In this document: positions 1 through 11,919 of the stretch, piece after piece
Position numbering within the stretch: the stretch's first letter is position 1
Layout of the letters: each line of letters opens with the position of its first letter
NCBI GenBank assembly: GCA_034670305.1
Contig: JAXMNT010000012.1
Coordinates: 91,534-155,533 of the forward strand
DNA: 64,000 nucleotides
Source of the DNA: Deltaproteobacteria bacterium
Lineage (GTDB): Bacteria; Myxococcota_A; Polyangia; Polyangiales; Houyiibacteriaceae
Reading direction: 5' to 3'
Program-made: the position numbers and the translations under genes
Notes under the pieces: generated by a model
What the model was told of the DNA's origin: nothing
The model's database searches: none
Seen by the model: only the letters and a program-made list of their open reading frames with translations

Positions 1-1
1 C

Positions 2-100
2 TCGATGCGCGAAGACGGACTCGAGCTCGACAAGTTCGTGCTCGCGTTGGACGAGGACTTCGTGCCCGAAGGCGACGGCCCGCCGGAGACCCGGCCCTAG
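2..100 (+). CDS. 3' end of a CDS entering from the left edge; C-terminal MREDG..DK..L..D...P.G.GP motif of carbohydrate-associated beta-sandwich domains
   Basis: Frame 2 reads SMREDGLELDKFVLALDEDFVPEGDGPPETRP, TAG at 98-100; GC3-rich codons. Confidence 0.6.
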   Translation, partial: SMREDGLELDKFVLALDEDFVPEGDGPPETRP

Positions 101-208
101 TACCGGGGGGCGGCTCCGCGCCCGTCCCCGAAGGGTTGGTTTTCCACCCACCGAACCCACCGCCGGAAAAGCAGAAAGCTTCCACAGCCCGCGGTGGTAT
201 GAGAACCC

Positions 209-1069
209 ATGCGGTTGGCGGGTGACAAGCAGGTGCGCGCGTGGAGCTCAGGGCAGGTCAAAAAGCCCGAGACGTTGAACTACCGGACCTTCAAACCGGA
301 GAAGGACGGACTCTTCTGCGTGGAGATCTTCGGTTCGTTTCCGCCCCTGGAGCGCGGCGGGCCCGACACGCAGATCGGACACATCGAACTCTGCCAGCCA
401 GTGGTGCATCCGTGGTTCCGAACGAAGCTCGCACAGCTGCTCGGCGTGTCGGTGATCGAGGTGAACGCGCTGTGCCTGAGCGAGCGGGCGATGGTGATGG
501 ACCCGGGGCCGTCGTCGCTGCGCAGGGGACAGATCGTGACGATCGCGGAGCGGGAGAACCTGCTCGGCGAATGGGGTGGCGATGTGACGCTGGCCACTGG
601 TACCGCCGAACTGCGCGCGGTGCTTGGGTCCGCCGCGGACGAGGTGTGTTTGAACGCGGTGCCCGTGTGCCCGCCGTCGATCCGGCCCATGCAGTACCTC
701 GAAGGCAAGCTGATCAAGACCCACGGCTTGTGCGATCTGTACCGACGCATGGTGAACCGCGCGAACCGGCTGCGGCGGCTCGTGGAACTGAACGCGCCCG
801 AGATCATTCTCGTCAACGAAGCGCGCATGCAGCAGGAAGCGTTCGATGCGTTGATCGAGAACGGTGAGGGACCGAAGGTCATCACGGGCACCGACAAGGA
901 ACGACTCCCTTCGTTGCTCGATGCGTTCCGGGAGGTCCATGGCCCGAACGCCGACCCACTCGCCGGCGACTACCCGGACACGCCGCTCATCCGCTCGCTC
1001 GCGTTGACGCGAGGCAGCGCGGCCGCAAGTTCAGCCCCGGCCAACCCCGACGACTTCGACTTCGACTGA
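209..1069 (+). CDS. Stand-alone RNA polymerase beta-prime N-terminal (clamp, Rpb1 domain 1-like) protein; not a full rpoC
   Basis: WSSGQVKKPETLNYRTFKPEKDGLFC..IFG, GHIEL..PVVH.WF, PVCPPSIRP and DLYRRMVNRANRLRRL..LNAPEIIL.NE.RM.QEAFDAL..NG match RpoC motifs; ends before switch 2 and NADFDGD; no rpoB or ribosomal neighbours. Confidence 0.9.
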   Translation: MRLAGDKQVRAWSSGQVKKPETLNYRTFKPEKDGLFCVEIFGSFPPLERGGPDTQIGHIELCQPVVHPWFRTKLAQLLGVSVIEVNALCLSERAMVMDPGPSSLRRGQIVTIAERENLLGEWGGDVTLATGTAELRAVLGSAADEVCLNAVPVCPPSIRPMQYLEGKLIKTHGLCDLYRRMVNRANRLRRLVELNAPEIILVNEARMQQEAFDALIENGEGPKVITGTDKERLPSLLDAFREVHGPNADPLAGDYPDTPLIRSLALTRGSAAASSAPANPDDFDFD

Positions 1070-1238
1070 TCAGGGGCGCTCGGAGGTCGGCTCGAAGCGC
1101 CAGCGCCGGAGCACGAGCCGCTCGGTCTGCCATCGGGGGGCGAGGTTCACCGGATCCAGATACCACGACGCGCTCCAGACCAGAGCCACGGCGCTTGGGC
1201 GCAGAGCGGGCGCACAGGGCAGGTGGTATAGAAGCGGG

Positions 1239-2987
1239 ATGGACCGACGCGATCTTCGCTGGCTCTGCGCCTTGGTGCTCTCGATGGTCTCGCTGGGATG
1301 CGGTGGCCCAGGATCGACGACCGACGCTGGCCGAGAAGACGCGGGCGGCGTCGATGCGCCAGGCGCCGACGCACCCACCCAAGACGCACCCGGCGTGGAT
1401 GCGCCCACGGCCAGCGGCCGGTTCGTCTTGGTCGACACCGCGATGGACGAACCGCAGTGGCGCGAGACCTACCCGACGCCGTGTTACCTCGGCGACGCGC
1501 TGCAATGCGAAGCGCACGAGACCGGCGGCGGCATGGCGATCCGCGACGTGGACGGCGACGGAGACCTCGACGTGTTCTTGACCCACTTCGAAGCGGCGGA
1601 CGTGCTCTACCTGAACGACGGCGGCTTCGTCTTTCGCGCCACCACCATCGCCGCCCACGCCGAGGCGCTCTACACCAATGGCGCGGCGTTCGCGGACATC
1701 GACGAAGACGGCGACGCGGACCTGCTGGTGGGCACCGTGGGCGAAGACCGGTTTCGGCTCCTCATCGGAGACGGAGCGGGCAACTTCACCGAAGAGGCGG
1801 TCGCGCGTGGCGTCGCGCAGACCGCCGCCGACGAAGACGACTTTCACTCGACGATGAGCCACTGCTTCGCGGACTACGACCTCGATGGCTTTCTGGATCT
1901 CGCCACGAGCGAATGGCGCATCGAACGCGCGACTGGCACCTCGCGCAACGCGCTCCTTCGCAACCGAGGCACCGACATGCCCGGCTTCTTCACCAACGAA
2001 ACCGAAGCGCTCGGCATCGACATGATCGACGTGCCCGGCGCGACCGCCGGCGCGTGGGGGTTCACGCCGATCCTCGCAGACATGGACGGCGACGACCGAC
2101 CGGATCTCTTCTTCGCGTCGGACTTCGAATCGTCCCGGGTGTTCTGGAACGACGGCGCGACGTTCTCGGACGGCACCGACGTGGCCATGGTCGGCACCGA
2201 AGAGAACGGCATGGGCGGCGCGATCGGCGACTACGACGGCGACGGAGACTTCGACTACTTCGTCACCTCGATCGACAACCCCGACTGCGCCGGTTGCGAG
2301 GTCTGGGGCAAGACCGGCAACCGCCTCTACCGCAACGATGGCGGGCGCCGCTTCACCGACGTCACCGACGCCGCCGGCGTGCGCGGTGCGGGCTGGGCGT
2401 GGGGCACCCGCTTCTTCGACTACGATCTGGACGGCGACCTCGATCTCATCGCGACCAACGGCATGCGCAAGCCGCCCGCCACCACCAACTTCGCCACCGA
2501 CCCGACCCGCCTGTGGCGCAACGAAGGCGACGGCACGTTCACCGAAGTCGCCGGCGCAATGGGTCTCGACCACGTCGGCGTCGGCCGCGGGGTCGCCACC
2601 TTCGACGCGGACGGCGACGGAGATCTGGACGTGCTGATCACCCACAACCTCGACGCGCCGGTGCTCTACCGCAACGACGTCGGGGTGCCCGAAGACGGCG
2701 TCGGCCGCGCGTGGCTCGAAGTGCAGCCCCAGGGCAGCACCAGCAACCGCGACGGCATGGGCGCGATCGTGCGCGTGGTCGCCACCGACGGCGCCGCCCC
2801 GATGGTGCGGCTGAGCGGCAACGGCTGCGGCTTTCTCGCCCACACCCCCGGCACCCCCCACTTCGGACTCGGCGACCTCGAGTCCGTGGCGCGCATCGAA
2901 GTCTTCTTCCCCGCGAGCGGACGCATGGTGGTCATGACCGACGTCGCCACCCGTCAGCGTCTGGTCGTCGTCGAACCCGACGCCTGA
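1239..2987 (+). CDS. CRTAC1/ASPIC-UnbV family FG-GAP-repeat lipoprotein
   Basis: Lipobox LGC, many DxDGDGDLD repeats, GWAWG motif, C-terminal SNRDGMGA.V...HFGLG. Confidence 0.85.
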   Translation: MDRRDLRWLCALVLSMVSLGCGGPGSTTDAGREDAGGVDAPGADAPTQDAPGVDAPTASGRFVLVDTAMDEPQWRETYPTPCYLGDALQCEAHETGGGMAIRDVDGDGDLDVFLTHFEAADVLYLNDGGFVFRATTIAAHAEALYTNGAAFADIDEDGDADLLVGTVGEDRFRLLIGDGAGNFTEEAVARGVAQTAADEDDFHSTMSHCFADYDLDGFLDLATSEWRIERATGTSRNALLRNRGTDMPGFFTNETEALGIDMIDVPGATAGAWGFTPILADMDGDDRPDLFFASDFESSRVFWNDGATFSDGTDVAMVGTEENGMGGAIGDYDGDGDFDYFVTSIDNPDCAGCEVWGKTGNRLYRNDGGRRFTDVTDAAGVRGAGWAWGTRFFDYDLDGDLDLIATNGMRKPPATTNFATDPTRLWRNEGDGTFTEVAGAMGLDHVGVGRGVATFDADGDGDLDVLITHNLDAPVLYRNDVGVPEDGVGRAWLEVQPQGSTSNRDGMGAIVRVVATDGAAPMVRLSGNGCGFLAHTPGTPHFGLGDLESVARIEVFFPASGRMVVMTDVATRQRLVVVEPDA

Positions 2988-3110
2988 CATCCAGGTCCCG
3001 AAGCCGCCCCCGAAGCCGAAGGGAAGCCGGTGAAACGGCCAGCGCTCAGGAACCGGCGCTTCGGGAACGACCCTGTTCAGCATCGCCGGATCTCTGGGTA
3101 GAGTCGCGCC

Positions 3111-4148
3111 ATGTCAAAGCCTCTCCTTCTGACCTGGACGCTGGACGAGTGGCCGCTCGCGCGTCGCTGGGCGGACTACGTCGGCTTCCCCGAGTCCGCC
3201 CGAACCGCGCTCTTCTACGCGTGGTGGGGACCGAAGTCGTCGAAGCTCTCGATCTTCGAACGCATCGACGAACCGGACCTCGACGAAGCGGTGACCGACG
3301 CCGGGCTGTGGGTTGCGCAGCTCGGCTGGGCAGCCCTCGCCCACCACGGCGACGTGCATCAACGTTGGCAGGCGCCTCACACCGTGGTGGGTCAGCCGAT
3401 CAGGTTTCTCGCCGGACCGCACTTCGGGGATCACGACGCGCGCGGCGAGTTCGGGTTTCACGCCACCGCGACGTTCGACGGCGCGCGCTCGGTCGTGGAG
3501 TCCGATGGCTTCGAGGTGTGGAAGGTCGCCGAACTGCTGAAACCAACGAAGCCGCGCGAACTCGAAGCACGCATCGACTGGATGGAGGAGGAGACGGCGG
3601 AGCCCATTCGCGCGCTCTTTCGTGGCGACACCGACGAACTCGACTTCGCCTACCTCGACGGTCTGCTCGCGCTGCCCTCCGCTTGGTCCGACCTCGACCG
3701 GCGGGTCCTCACCGCCGCAGAGTCGCGGGGAACGACGGGCCGCGATGTGATGGCGACGCTGACCGGCTCGAGCACCCTCGTCGACGAAGCGGGGATCGCG
3801 GAGCGCCAACTCGCCGAGTGGGGCTTCTCCAGTGCGCTCTCGGTCTCGGGCGAAGGCGCGTGTCACCCAGAACATGGCAGGGCGTCCGCGTACGCGGCGC
3901 TCTCAGCAACCGCGGACATGGACAGATTCATCACCGGACTCGAGGCCCACGAGGAACCCGACATCGCATTCGTGGACGCGGTGCACCTGCTCGCCTACTT
4001 CGCACCGAAGAGCTCCCTGTGCGGCCTGTTCCTCGAACGCATCGACACCGTCATCGCCCGTTCACCCGACCCCGACGCCACGGCGGAGATGATCGCCGAC
4101 GACCCGGAACTGTCCGACCTGCTGGACGCGCTGCGCTCGAGCGACTGA
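3111..4148 (+). CDS. Hypothetical protein, 345 aa
   Basis: Host-like codon usage; TAGAGT 6 nt before ATG; no motif recognised. Confidence 0.7.
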   Translation: MSKPLLLTWTLDEWPLARRWADYVGFPESARTALFYAWWGPKSSKLSIFERIDEPDLDEAVTDAGLWVAQLGWAALAHHGDVHQRWQAPHTVVGQPIRFLAGPHFGDHDARGEFGFHATATFDGARSVVESDGFEVWKVAELLKPTKPRELEARIDWMEEETAEPIRALFRGDTDELDFAYLDGLLALPSAWSDLDRRVLTAAESRGTTGRDVMATLTGSSTLVDEAGIAERQLAEWGFSSALSVSGEGACHPEHGRASAYAALSATADMDRFITGLEAHEEPDIAFVDAVHLLAYFAPKSSLCGLFLERIDTVIARSPDPDATAEMIADDPELSDLLDALRSSD

Positions 4149-4173
4149 ACGGCTGAGCGACTGAACGGCTGAG
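4140..4173. repeat. 16-bp tandem duplication spanning the stop codon of 3111-4148
   Basis: agcgactgaacggctg occurs twice in tandem. Confidence 0.8.
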
Positions 4174-4181
4174 CTCGAGCG

Positions 4182-4706
4182 TCAGCGGTCGAAGGCGCGC
4201 CAGGTCAACGAGATGCGGGGCTCGGCGTAGCGCTGGCGTTTGATCGCGTGGACCCAGGTCTCTTGCACGACGTTCTCCATGTACAGCAGTGAGCCGGGTT
4301 GGAGGAGGAACGCGTGGCGTTCTTCGGGGTCGATGCGGCTTCGGTAGGTGAGGTTGCGGGCGTAGCCGAGCGAGACGATCGCGACGCCGGTGCCGGCGCG
4401 CAGCTCCGAGGTGTCGTCGGAGTGAAAACCCATCTTGCCGCGGCCATCGAGGTAGTAGTTCAAGAGGCAGTTGTTGAACTGGACGCCGAGCCGCTCCTGC
4501 AGACGCTCGACCATCGGGACGAGCAGCGGGTGCATCGGACACGCGGGGTAGACCATCTGCGCGTAGTTGTACGGCACCCCGAACGAGGCGGTGAGGCGCG
4601 CGGACATGCTGCGGTCCCAGTCGATGCCATCGGCGATCTTCTGAAACAACGCCTCCGCGTCGGGCACGAAGTTCTCTTCGAGGAGCAGCTCGGGCGGTCC
4701 GTGCAT
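4182..4706 (-). CDS. AlkB-family 2OG-Fe(II) dioxygenase (ALKBH2/3-like)
   Basis: FNNCLLNYY.DG..KMGFHSD (HxD), GSLL.M...Q..W.HAI and RISLTWR; start set at MHGPP. Confidence 0.88.
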   Translation of the reverse strand: MHGPPELLLEENFVPDAEALFQKIADGIDWDRSMSARLTASFGVPYNYAQMVYPACPMHPLLVPMVERLQERLGVQFNNCLLNYYLDGRGKMGFHSDDTSELRAGTGVAIVSLGYARNLTYRSRIDPEERHAFLLQPGSLLYMENVVQETWVHAIKRQRYAEPRISLTWRAFDR

Positions 4707-4803
4707 CGCGTGGAGCGCGAGGTTGGAATGACGTGCGTGCGTTGGCAACCTGCGCCGGGCTACACGCAGACCATCTGCGAGCGGCAGCCTGGTACGCTCC
4801 GGT

Positions 4804-5808
4804 GTGCGCATTGGGGTGTACGGCGCGGGGGCGATCGGATGTTACGTCGGCGGGCTGCTTCAGTCCGGCGGCGCGGACGTCGTATTCGTAGGGCGCGCGC
4901 GGACGCGAGACGAAGTGGCCGCACACGGACTGACGCTCGAAGACCTGCAGGCCGCGCCCGCGCGATTGCAGGCCGACGAGATCCGATACGAGACGGATCC
5001 GGAGGCGCTGGCCGACTGCGACGTGGTGCTCGTGTGCGTGAAGAGCGCGCAGACCGAAGCGGTCGCCGAACAGCTCGCGAAGACGGTGCCAAGCGCGCTC
5101 GTGGTCAGTCTGCAGAACGGGGTGCGCAACCCCGAGACGCTGCGGATCCACCTGCCCGACGTGATGGCTGGCATCGTGGAATTCAACGTGCGCTCGATGG
5201 GGGACGGCGTGTTCCGGCGCACGATGAGCGGTCCGATCCTGCTCGAGTCGACGGGGTCTCCGGGCGCGAACGCGTGGTTCGAAGCGATGGAGCGGAGCGC
5301 CATCGAACTCGAGACGAAGACGGACATCGTGCCGAGTCAGTGGACGAAGATGATCGTCAACCTGAACAACGCGGTGAGTGCGCTCTCGGGCGCGTCGACG
5401 CCGACGCTGCTCACGACCCCTGGGTACCGGCGGGTCATCGCCGACATCATCGACGAGGCCCTGCGGGTCCTGAAGGAAGCGCGCATCCAACCGGCGCGGC
5501 TTCGTGGCGTCCCGATCGGCTGGATGCCAAAGGTGCTGCGCATGCCCACTCGGATCGTTCGACTGGTCACCCGTGCGCAGATGAAGGTGGACCCAGAGGC
5601 GCGCTCGTCGATGTGGGAAGACCTGACCCGGAGGCGGCCCACGGAGATCGATTTTCTGAACGGGGAGGTGGTGCGCCTCGCGGAACGGCTCGACACCTCC
5701 GCGCCGATCAACGGCCGCGTCGTGGCGTTGATCCGCGAGGCGGAACGGGCCGGCAACGGACCTCCGGACTTCGACGCACCGACCCTCGAGCGGCTGCTGC
5801 GCTCGTAG
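4804..5808 (+). CDS. panE: 2-dehydropantoate 2-reductase (ApbA/PanE family)
   Basis: GAGAIG Rossmann motif, CVKS, LQNG, W.K..VN..N, SSMWEDL...R.TEIDFLNG. Confidence 0.88.
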   Translation: MRIGVYGAGAIGCYVGGLLQSGGADVVFVGRARTRDEVAAHGLTLEDLQAAPARLQADEIRYETDPEALADCDVVLVCVKSAQTEAVAEQLAKTVPSALVVSLQNGVRNPETLRIHLPDVMAGIVEFNVRSMGDGVFRRTMSGPILLESTGSPGANAWFEAMERSAIELETKTDIVPSQWTKMIVNLNNAVSALSGASTPTLLTTPGYRRVIADIIDEALRVLKEARIQPARLRGVPIGWMPKVLRMPTRIVRLVTRAQMKVDPEARSSMWEDLTRRRPTEIDFLNGEVVRLAERLDTSAPINGRVVALIREAERAGNGPPDFDAPTLERLLRS

Positions 5809-9448: not shown

Positions 9449-10960
9449 TCAACGCTCCGAGGGCGCCGCGACGGACCCGTTGGCGCGAAAGAGGAGGGTC
9501 AGATCGGTGGACCAGTCGCCGCCATCAGGGCCGGGCCGGAAGCGCATCGCGGAGAGGATGCGCTCGACGCATGGCGCGTCGGCGCCACGAACGATCACGC
9601 GGGTCTCACCCGCCATGGTCAACGTGGCATGGACCCGTGTTGCCCCACCCCGCGGCCCGCCGCACGACTGCAGCTCCGAGCGCCGCCCGCGCACGGCGCG
9701 CATGAACAGCGCAGGATCGTAGTCTCCCCATCCCTCGACGGTCGGTTGTGCAGGAGCGACGCGAGGAACAGGTGGGACGGGCAACCCTCCCGTGCGTACC
9801 GCCAACCGCTCCGCGTCGTTGGTCGCTGCCTCGAAAGCGATCCGATACCGTTCTCGCCCTGCCACCCATGCGAGCGCGTCGGCTACGTCCAGCACGAGTT
9901 CGGGGTGTGGCCGTTCATCGACGAACCGTCCAAGTCGACGGGTTTCGGGTCCGCAGCCGTCCGGCTGCATGTTCGTGTCGGGTGCCCGTGCCATGCGCTG
10001 CGTACAACGATGCAGGTCCGTGACCAGGTGCTCCTGAAGCGTGTCCAGGATCTGGGTCCGGCAATCCGCCCGCTCTGCCGTGGGTGCGCGGGCGCAGTCG
10101 GCGAGTCCCTCCCAGGCCACCGCGCGCGCCTTGTCCGCGTCCATGTTGCGACGATGCGCTTCGATCCACCGAAGCCAGGTCTCCACCCGGCGCGCGTTGG
10201 GCCAGCGCGCATGCAGGGTCTCTGCGACGACAGCAGCCTCGTCGTAGCGCGCGCTGTCCATGAGCCAGTCGAGCACCTGCCGGGCAATCCGCGCTGCGAC
10301 CGCTGGGTCGGCAGGGAGCACCGTCAGGTCGGGGCCGGTCCAGTCGGCGTCCGTCACGCCATCCATGTTCCGGTCGTCTTCGATCGCAAACCGCGCGAAC
10401 CATTGGATGCCGAGCTCGAGCATGGGCGGGTCCGGGTTGGCCTCGAGCAGCCGCCGCACCGCCAGCACCGCTTCGTCGTGCCGGTCCAGGCGGTACAGCA
10501 CTCGGACCCGGCCCAAGAGCGCCAGGTGTCGCAGTCGTGGGCCGTGTGCGATCCGTTCGTAGAGATGTGCGGCCGCTTCGAGTGCTTCGATGGAGTGGTC
10601 GCCCTCGAGCGCGATCGCGGTCGCGAAGACGACCGGATCGGCGCTGCAGCTCAGCGGTGACAGAGACGCGATGACTGGTTCGACGTCGTAACACGCGGCG
10701 TCGGGCGTCTCCGGCTGGCGCGATCCGGTCGGGGCGCAATGCTGGCGCAGCGAACGTGCGGGACACGGATCCTCGGACCCCACGACGACGAACCTCGGGA
10801 GCGGCAGGCGCCCAGGGTTCGAGAGTTCGTCGAGCTGAATGACGCGTGGGGTTCGTCGCCGCTGTGCACTGGCCATGCTGGCCATGCTGGGCGCGGCGAC
10901 CAGCAGCGCGATGCACGCGAACCAAACGGTCCTGAGGCAGGCTTGAAGCGGTTGCTGCAC
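9449..10960 (-). CDS. Secreted TPR-containing hypothetical protein (start uncertain)
   Basis: Hydrophobic N-terminus, TPR-like helices, Cys-containing C-terminal domain. Confidence 0.6.
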   Translation of the reverse strand: MQQPLQACLRTVWFACIALLVAAPSMASMASAQRRRTPRVIQLDELSNPGRLPLPRFVVVGSEDPCPARSLRQHCAPTGSRQPETPDAACYDVEPVIASLSPLSCSADPVVFATAIALEGDHSIEALEAAAHLYERIAHGPRLRHLALLGRVRVLYRLDRHDEAVLAVRRLLEANPDPPMLELGIQWFARFAIEDDRNMDGVTDADWTGPDLTVLPADPAVAARIARQVLDWLMDSARYDEAAVVAETLHARWPNARRVETWLRWIEAHRRNMDADKARAVAWEGLADCARAPTAERADCRTQILDTLQEHLVTDLHRCTQRMARAPDTNMQPDGCGPETRRLGRFVDERPHPELVLDVADALAWVAGRERYRIAFEAATNDAERLAVRTGGLPVPPVPRVAPAQPTVEGWGDYDPALFMRAVRGRRSELQSCGGPRGGATRVHATLTMAGETRVIVRGADAPCVERILSAMRFRPGPDGGDWSTDLTLLFRANGSVAAPSER

Positions 10961-11112
10961 AGTTGCTCCAGTGTGTCATACGGGGTGGGTGCACGAGCCC
11001 TGCCCTTCGGCGCCAGCGCGCAGCGAAGCTGCCCAAGCGCCGGTGGTGCGCCTCGGCTTCTTCCCCGGATCGGTGGCCGGATGCGCTCGCGATGTGCGGT
11101 AGACTCCCGCGC

Positions 11113-11919
11113 GTGTCGATACCCCGGTGCGCTCGAGTTCTCGCGGTCGCGTGTCTGCTCTTGGCAAACACAACTGGTTGCGGCGGCGGTCAGGTCCAGA
11201 TCACCCAGGCCCCACCGGTCGACCCCGACGGGGACGGGGTCGCGGGCAACGCCGACCAGTGTCCAGACACGCCTGAAGACCGCGACAATTTCGAGGACGA
11301 CGACGGATGTCCAGACGCCGACAACGACGCTGACGGCATGCTCGACATCCACGACCGGTGCCCGCAAGAAGCCGAAGACCCCGACGGCTTCGTCGACGAG
11401 GACGGCTGCCCAGACGTCGACAACGACCGCGATGGCATCCCTGACGTGAACGACCGGTGCCCATGCCAGGCGGAGACCTACAACGACCTCGAAGACGAGG
11501 ACGGGTGTGCCGACGGCAGCATGGTGTTGCTCATCGACAACCGGATCACGATCCGCGACCAGGTCTTCTTCAGGGTCAACCGCGCGTACATTCCCGCGGA
11601 GGCAGAAGCGCTCCTCGATGCGCTCGTGGATGTGATGCGCGCCCACCCCGAGGTGCACCACGTCGTCGTGCAGGGCCACGCCGCCCCGGGCGAACACCGC
11701 CCCCAACAACTCGCGCTTGCGCGGGCTGAGGCCGTCCACGCGCGGTTGATCTCGCTCGGTGTCGAACCCGCCCGCCTCGGATTCGCTGCGTTCTCGGACG
11801 ACCAACCCATTCACCCGACGGAACAGGACCGCAACCGGCGGGTGGAGTTCCACGTGGATGCGGCGGACGAACCACCACCGAACATTCGGCAGACCGACCC
11901 CAAGTTCGATTGTCCGTGA
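11113..11919 (+). CDS. OmpA-family lipoprotein with thrombospondin type 3-like repeats
   Basis: Lipobox TGC; D.CP...ED.D.F.D.DGCPD repeats; V.QGHA, LALARAEAV, NRRVEF; GTG 7 nt after TAGACT. Confidence 0.85.
   Translation: MSIPRCARVLAVACLLLANTTGCGGGQVQITQAPPVDPDGDGVAGNADQCPDTPEDRDNFEDDDGCPDADNDADGMLDIHDRCPQEAEDPDGFVDEDGCPDVDNDRDGIPDVNDRCPCQAETYNDLEDEDGCADGSMVLLIDNRITIRDQVFFRVNRAYIPAEAEALLDALVDVMRAHPEVHHVVVQGHAAPGEHRPQQLALARAEAVHARLISLGVEPARLGFAAFSDDQPIHPTEQDRNRRVEFHVDAADEPPPNIRQTDPKFDCP

Follow-up and report, generated by a model that had tools for sequence, protein, structure and literature searches.

We describe a gene at positions 209–1,069 of the forward strand of a 64,000-nucleotide (nt) stretch of DNA, hereafter the window (positions 91,534–155,533 of contig JAXMNT010000012.1, assembly GCA_034670305.1, a deltaproteobacterium of the order Polyangiales). 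It encodes a 286-amino-acid (aa) protein, designated P0001. By sequence comparison P0001 is a paralog of the N-terminal clamp of the RNA polymerase subunit β′ rather than RpoC, the subunit itself, and it probably derives from a duplicated rpoC, most likely inside the Myxococcota. The reading that we favour, with a probability of about 45%, is that P0001 would act as an off-polymerase docking module for a sigma factor, or possibly for a factor of the NusG type, which it would titrate, store or prime.

A stand-alone paralog of the β′ clamp

The frame ends with a stop codon at 1,067–1,069 and continues upstream of the ATG for just two further open codons (288 in the whole open frame). Its in-frame GC content at third codon positions (GC3) was 0.85 as compared to 0.886 for rpoC of the same genome, and is thus typical of a coding frame in this genome. 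The sole Pfam family detected in P0001 was PF04997 (RNA_pol_Rpb1_1), which matched in two stretches with 99.6 bits against a gathering cut-off of 39.7 (E 2.9e-28). Comparison with solved β′ chains by phmmer (E 4e-51) resulted in three stretches, with P0001 residues 3–44, 55–141 and 139–253 corresponding to chain residues 24–65, 101–191 and 230–344, respectively. On these scores the homology of P0001 to β′ is far above chance. The breaks between the three stretches coincide exactly with two subdomains that are missing from P0001. In the Escherichia coli chain, residues 140–253 of P0001 matched residues 231–344, so an offset of +91 was used for all E. coli-numbered equivalents below.

The source assembly (7.9 Mb, 96% complete), in which the window belongs to contig C12, has a full-length rpoC (1,386 aa) on contig C47, in a normal rpoB–rpoC pair, and a third β′-like gene on contig C50. 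With the NCBIfam equivalog model for rpoC (TIGR02386), P0001 scored 179 bits, far below the cut-off of 963.5. Pfam, which found PF04997 alone, detected in it no catalytic domain bearing the aspartate motif that binds metal, and in the place of the four-Cys zinc ribbon of RpoC there are 14 residues with zero Cys. Membership in the PF04997 clamp domain is supported by the score and also by the predicted fold.

In-frame losses and the predicted fold

An earlier note on this DNA, made from its sequence, had claimed that a zinc ribbon and a helical hairpin were excised from a β′-like protein in-frame and at domain edges. Translation and alignment to the RpoC of the same genome confirmed the Cys-free replacement of the ribbon and the junction SAAD in place of the hairpin, both at exactly the coordinates that had been given. 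Residues 43–56 (335–376), between the motifs IFG and GHIEL, read SFPPLERGGPDTQI and contain no Cys, whereas the genome's own RpoC has at this site 39 residues with a CxC...CxxC arrangement. The junction occupies residues 141–144 (629–640), where the own RpoC is longer by about 41–43 residues, forming the helical hairpin (approx. 41 of these residues are gone). The placement of the losses in-frame and at domain edges is likewise supported, with endpoints of the ribbon loss that are uncertain by some 10 residues, as two MAFFT runs positioned the remaining loop differently. The loop itself is constant among three close orthologs (0 of 10 positions variable at residues 45–54). The retained zipper NYRT and the change of the basic rudder to NGEGPK were also as described; the own RpoC reads NGRRGK, and the net charge is 0 in P0001 versus +6. 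The claim of two excisions stands for both of them but leaves out the ends of the protein: P0001 begins at approximately RpoC residue 22, the first ~21 residues of β′ being gone according to the alignment with the own RpoC, and β′ sequence past ~345–375, i.e. all that follows a degenerate switch-2 stretch, is missing as well, with P0001 terminating about 30 residues beyond this stretch.

We assume that the hairpin site is a place of lineage-specific insertions in other bacterial β′ subunits, in which case the loss at this point would be structurally cheap. The differing chain offsets in the phmmer stretches fit such an insertion site, without proving it.

AlphaFold2 (AF2), supplied with an alignment of 122 sequences, produced a model of P0001 with a predicted local distance difference test (pLDDT) score of 79.4 and a predicted template modelling (pTM) score of 0.82. 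Confidence was low at residues 26–35, 45–53 (the ribbon replacement, <50), 158–164 (the lid, <50) and 270–286, and the SAAD junction was modelled within a confident helix and turn (pLDDT 84–90 in the blocks covering residues 131–150). Foldseek matched the model to β′ chains with a probability of 1.00 and TM-scores for the query (TMq) of 0.68–0.74, and the best chain in VIA-align had a Z of 23.0 and a root-mean-square deviation of 3.7 with 253 residues aligned. P0001 is thus predicted to adopt the β′ clamp fold, and the fold check that had been suggested for the earlier claims came out in their favour once the alignment was supplied.

The VIA-align range reaches approximately β′ residues 1342–1347 in full-length chains and stops at model residue 248 in a cyanobacterial gamma chain, which is without that segment. 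As a lead only, the C-terminal helix of the P0001 model (983–1,040, residues 259–277) may occupy the place of the β′ C-terminal clamp segment. Comparison of the C-terminal tail with the C-terminus of RpoC by blastp-short revealed no significant similarity, with the best E of 0.30 located elsewhere in RpoC.

Uneven conservation along the clamp

Positions with at least 90% agreement among 118 RpoC sequences were regarded as invariant. The N-terminal strand and zipper, delimited by phmmer as residues 1–42 (209–334, β′ ~22–63, with NYRT at 24–27), is well kept: P0001 has 27 of the 35 invariant positions over residues 1–44. Past the Cys-free loop, the clamp core (residues 57–140, 377–628; pLDDT ~84–94) has 13 out of 27 over residues 55–100 and 4 out of 10 over residues 101–139. 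Beyond the SAAD junction, the lid (residues 158–172, E. coli-numbered 249–263; 680–724) is degenerate, with 5/14 kept, and is followed by the clamp helices, i.e. the coiled coil (residues 173–217, E. coli-numbered 264–308; 725–859), which keep 26/36 and, by conservation and model confidence (pLDDT 92–95) together, are the best-kept part. Next come a rudder-like stretch without the basic residues (residues 218–234, 860–910, NGEGPK at 218–223; 6/13) and the degenerate switch-2-like stretch (residues 235–258, E. coli-numbered 326–349; 911–982; 7/21). The protein is completed by a short C-terminal helix, an Ala/Ser/Pro linker and an acidic-aromatic end, DDFDFD (residues 259–286, 983–1,066), as seen in the translation and the model. 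In 20 further paralogs, the mean share of invariant positions kept was 0.80 in the clamp helices, 0.75 in the lid and 0.36 in switch 2.

Within the clamp helices, the equivalents of E. coli R275, E295 and A302, which we take to be sigma-binding determinants, are R184, E204 and A211 of P0001, all retained. The equivalent of I290, I199, is retained too; according to PMC7430646, this residue of β′ contacts sigma. The earlier note had suggested that parts touching nucleic acid were lost and a protein-docking surface was kept. The conservation pattern fits this reading, in which the docking of a protein is, for its part, a prediction.

Relatives and the history of the two losses

The closest relatives of P0001 among 5.8 billion clustered proteins, P0002 and P0003 (291 and 287 aa), are 87% and 86% identical to it over the full length and possess identical gaps at both sites; the next matches were ordinary rpoC fragments with 33–38% identity. 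The three orthologs share 86–89% identity, have intact frames and zero indels in residues 1–262, indels being confined to the tail, and differ at 3 of 45 positions in the clamp helices as opposed to 9 of 45 in the stretch just after. A more distant relative, P0124 (identical to P0123; 306 aa, 40% identical), is carried by the genome G021 under the source label ‘hypothetical protein [Myxococcota bacterium]’. This was the only other genome with a short relative of P0001 among 88 genomes of the family searched (own included), and at least 3 of 401 genomes of the order had a match at E <= 1e-29, with at most six candidates scored per genome.

A profile of four short proteins, run against 1.84 billion representatives, had 18 single-stretch matches among its best 150, of which 17 were newly retrieved and the eighteenth was P0003. 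Of the 17, two are again short, namely P0126 (297 aa) and P0255 (301 aa). The others were 521–1,269 aa long, and those scanned with Pfam had C-terminal domains of β before the clamp and, in some cases, a C-terminal domain of the alpha subunit (alpha-CTD) after it; we refer to them as chimeras. The short clade comprised three 50%-identity clusters among the 1.84 billion representatives. Four short proteins with PF04997 alone (P0279, P0281, P0029 and P0116), all on long contigs, were considered as family members and rejected as ordinary rpoC cut short.

We define the short stand-alone clamp group as P0001, P0002, P0003, P0124 and P0126. Its features are a start at approximately β′ residue 22, no hairpin, an end after the degenerate switch 2 and a length of 286–306 aa, all of which are found in P0001. 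P0124 and P0126, at ~40% identity, have the boundaries and the hairpin loss of P0001, yet retain the zinc ribbon; the ribbon is therefore not common to the group, being kept in these two and lost in P0001–P0003. The check for shared endpoints, also suggested earlier, was conducted on an alignment of 23 clamp paralogs with the 118 RpoC sequences, and relatives do share them. Among the 23, 11 have no ribbon (P0001–P0003, P0255, P0207, P0247, P0212, P0235, P0262, P0269 and a protein from genome G218), and in all of these the gap runs from the IFG motif to about 8 residues ahead of the GH motif, i.e. with nearly the same endpoints, and the other 12 keep the four Cys. Relative to RpoC, the hairpin region is shortened in 23/23, by approx. 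41 residues in 9 and by ~16 to 38 in 14.

A tree was calculated from the 23 paralogs together with 15 RpoC sequences after removal of the columns of both lost regions; on it, the presence or absence of the ribbon needs 4 changes, at least 3 of which are forced by well-supported branches. P0001–P0003 group with P0124 and P0126, their ribbon-bearing sisters, with a support of 97 in the Shimodaira–Hasegawa-like approximate likelihood ratio test (SH-aLRT). One tree placed chimeras and short forms together and apart from real RpoC (support 92/89), a grouping that carries a long-branch caveat; in the larger tree, that of 23 paralogs and 15 RpoC sequences, the paralogs did not form a single group. 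Since the hairpin is shortened in every paralog and the ribbon is kept in relatives of ~40% identity, the sequences indicate that the hairpin loss is an old and general trait of the paralog group and that the ribbon was lost later in the P0001 lineage, with parallels elsewhere.

In two contig scans, of genomes and of metagenomes, the best 80 of 580 and the best 80 of 568 confirmed relatives were all 32–38% identical, and a search of the ESM Atlas returned RpoC-fragment clusters only. Window positions 1–1,300 were found in full in only four public DNA runs, all from one study labelled plastic metagenome, which may represent the source samples. In a run from a different study (X5) there was a 195-base piece, ~87% identical to nt 325–519, which means that a further relative exists elsewhere; 6 of its 12 listed differences fall at third codon positions, too few for a test.

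A predicted sigma contact and its interpretation

We co-folded P0001 with residues 186–540 of the RpoD of the same genome and obtained a score of 0.82, the best control having 0.12; the mark used for such co-folds is reached by 58 of 80 complexes with a solved structure and by 2 of 110 mismatched pairs. At least 89% of the contacts agreed between runs, and the pLDDT of the partner was at least 80. The predicted interface joins residues 176–210 of P0001, in the clamp helices, to RpoD residues 464–479, a conserved stretch of region 2, and additional contacts were seen at RpoD 192–203, 439–450 and 512–526. It should be noted that holoenzymes have been solved and that the alignment consists mostly of RpoC, so that the pass may reflect memory. 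We consider that the co-fold shows P0001 to resemble the sigma-docking clamp still, a modelled likeness rather than binding.

In the scenario that we favour, P0001 would be a functional, non-catalytic β′ clamp paralog working outside the polymerase. It would have shed the catalytic body together with three modules that presumably contact nucleic acid or other subunits (zinc ribbon, hairpin and basic rudder), and let the lid degenerate. What it would have kept is the clamp coiled coil, the putative docking site, above all, of sigma region 2 and also of the N-terminal (NGN) domains of NusG-type factors. The clamp helices may then bind a sigma-70-family factor, or less likely a NusG-like one, and keep it from the core enzyme by target mimicry, and the acidic-aromatic C-terminal end would be a putative second contact motif. 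As candidate partners, 39 matches to sigma-70 region 2 were found in the same genome. PMC12000874 describes the binding of sigma region 2 to the β′ clamp helices as the main core–sigma contact, one which raises the affinity of sigma for −10 single-stranded DNA. Any regulatory consequence of the predicted contact is inferred. If the proposal is true, it would represent control of sigma by mimicry of an enzyme surface, differing in principle from dedicated anti-sigma proteins.

Several observations weigh against this proposal. The good AF2 model and the co-fold both depend on an alignment mostly of real RpoC, and the AF2 model built from the single sequence was unusable (pLDDT 39.5). Ten invariant positions of the clamp helices are altered in P0001, e.g. 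the equivalents of N266, N276, R293 and K296, which could weaken or retarget the binding of sigma. No sigma or anti-sigma gene was found near P0001, and the neighbourhood is not conserved: in G021 (contig C323, loci L090/L103) the gene of the 306-aa relative is followed after ~70 nt by that of a 546-aa membrane Ser/Thr protein kinase on the same strand, and the window has no such neighbour. The polymerase clamp, as we understand it, also requires C-terminal pieces of β and β′, and no dedicated β-like partner gene besides RpoB and a chimera (P0121, described below) was found in this genome. Finally, none of the public runs found to contain window positions 1–1,300 is an RNA run, which is no evidence either way.

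Alternatively, P0001 might be an assembly or scaffold partner that binds RpoB or the chimera at the C-terminal clamp part, in the manner of the β′ N-terminus within the enzyme, and thereby modulates the assembly of polymerase or completes a non-catalytic pseudo-core. The N-terminal strand region, which we believe packs against β in the enzyme, is indeed well kept (27/35 invariant positions), a chimera with the β C-terminal part is encoded by the same genome, and clamp paralogs occur both joined to a β part and free. On the other hand, the first ~21 residues of β′ are absent from P0001, the chimera has a clamp of its own and, as said, the genome offers no other dedicated β-like partner, and we regard this alternative as unlikely. 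Neither do we expect P0001 to be a decoy that soaks up or senses attackers of the clamp, be they phage inhibitors of the β′ N-terminus and clamp or myxobacterial antibiotics against the clamp and switch region. Myxobacteria produce switch-region inhibitors, mimicry would suit a protein that copies an exposed surface of the polymerase but is catalytically dead, and the repeated loss of the same modules suggests that only the surface need be kept. Against this, neither P0001 nor P0124 matched any PADLOC family at E <= 0.01, defence or biosynthetic genes were not found beside P0001, and switch 2 is degenerate (7/21). The β and C-terminal β′ parts of the switch-region pocket are, we assume, absent from P0001; together with the degenerate switch 2 this makes an antibiotic pocket unlikely, and it was set aside. 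The decoy as a whole appears quite improbable to us.

The gene might, lastly, be a functionless relic of a partial rpoC duplication that decays and has stayed in-frame by luck. Its great rarity (the at least 3 of 401 genomes of the order and the three 50%-identity clusters mentioned above), the long branches, the degenerate lid, rudder and switch 2 and the lack of promoter-like or terminator-like sites, none of which were found in window positions 1–1,400, would all agree with decay. A relic is disfavoured by the intact frames of three orthologs at 86–89% identity with no indel in residues 1–262, by boundaries that are identical in relatives of ~40% identity and by the uneven substitutions (3/45 in the clamp helices versus 9/45 just after); a GC3 of 0.85 and a confidently modelled fold also speak against it. 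We therefore hold this explanation to be very improbable.

Chimeras, acidic-aromatic ends and neighbouring genes

The third β′-like gene of the genome (contig C50, locus L007, 5,051–7,981, reverse strand) encodes the 976-aa chimera P0121. It consists of a β C-terminal part (Pfam Rpb2_6 and Rpb2_7), a β′ clamp, a remnant of β′ domain 2 without the catalytic motif, an alpha-CTD and an acidic-aromatic tail; its clamp has kept the zinc ribbon and has a shortened hairpin. Among the 88 genomes of the family (own included), P0121-like genes were recognised from the sequence itself in G005 and G022 and from a match alone in G004 and G020, and many representatives of 50%-identity clusters are of this kind. 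At the same locus, positions ~4,700–5,650 and 10,750–11,400 show long Glu-Ala, Lys-Arg and Pro-Lys/Thr dipeptide repeats in several frames, which points to simple GC-rich DNA repeats adjoining the chimera gene.

Acidic-aromatic ends are common to short paralogs and to those with an alpha-CTD: they are present in P0001 (window 1,049–1,066) and also in P0002, P0003, P0124, P0259, P0121 and P0254. In these ends, Phe, Leu or Ile are interspersed among 2–5 acidic residues, and Asp is the last residue. The genome's real RpoA has a different C-terminal end.

The β C-terminal part, the β′ clamp and the alpha-CTD are all, to our understanding, docking sites for sigma or activators. A wider and rather doubtful speculation is that P0001 and the β/β′-clamp/alpha-CTD chimeras might be ‘pseudo-core’ proteins, i.e. 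dead copies of sigma- and activator-docking surfaces which would constitute a new class of target-mimicry sigma regulators. The ribbon loss would then mark the shift of each lineage from a clamp engaged with nucleic acid to a protein-docking module, and the shared acidic-aromatic end would tie them to a common partner. Clamp paralogs further represent a natural experiment on dispensable modules, with the ribbon lost at least three times at near-identical endpoints and the hairpin shortened in every paralog. Full-text searches of the literature returned no account of stand-alone clamp paralogs or β/β′/alpha-CTD chimeras, a result that does not establish absence from print.

Upstream of P0001 (locus L009, 11,135–12,100, forward strand, reaching into window positions 1–100) lies the gene of a secreted protein of 321 aa, which has a hydrophobic stretch at its N-terminus and a GH115_C-like domain. 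Farther upstream, an efflux pump of ~1,015 aa and a two-component pair were recognised by eye from translations. Downstream, window positions 1,239–4,156 contain overlapping frames of 952 aa (forward strand) and 698 aa (reverse strand), with no Pfam family in either. No tRNA or Rfam family was detected in the window.

Comparison with known systems

P0001 closely resembles the N-terminal clamp of RpoC (E. coli-numbered residues ~22–345), with which it shares homology, the predicted fold and the kept clamp helices and zipper. It differs from RpoC in having 286 aa instead of ~1,400, no catalytic domains, ribbon or hairpin, and an acidic tail of its own. A natural precedent for a divided β′ is the cyanobacterial and plastid split into gamma (RpoC1) and β′ (RpoC2), gamma being a stand-alone chain which, similarly to P0001, opens with the β′ N-terminal clamp; NCBIfam gamma models match P0001 with E 4e-39. 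At ~620 aa, gamma is an obligatory subunit of the polymerase and retains both the catalytic site and the ribbon. In contrast, P0001 scores 134.8 bits against a gamma cut-off of 1,117 and ends before the catalytic domain, and because it has no catalytic part it is not a split subunit of the gamma type.

Laboratory fragments of the β′ N-terminus and coiled coil were reportedly found by Young et al. in 2001 to bind sigma-70 alone. They are comparable to P0001 as isolated clamp helices, for which a contact of the same kind with sigma region 2 is predicted in P0001. Unlike those fragments, which were engineered from a real subunit, P0001 is encoded by a natural gene that has diverged and has boundaries and a tail of its own, and the binding of P0001 to sigma is a prediction. 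With anti-sigma factors (Rsd, FlgM and class I anti-sigma domains) P0001 would share the proposed outcome, a sigma kept from the core. It has no homology to them (PF04997 is its only Pfam match), and what is proposed is mimicry of a polymerase docking site, not an anti-sigma fold.

Further counterparts, from the same genome and from relatives, are the β/β′-clamp chimeras, with or without the alpha-CTD (P0121, P0254, P0259, P0212 and others), which are likewise non-catalytic and have a shortened hairpin. In several of them the ribbon is gone as well, with the endpoints seen in P0001, and several carry a similar acidic-aromatic tail. The chimeras are proteins of 520–1,270 aa that combine the clamp with β parts, further β′ parts or an alpha-CTD, whereas P0001 consists of the clamp alone.

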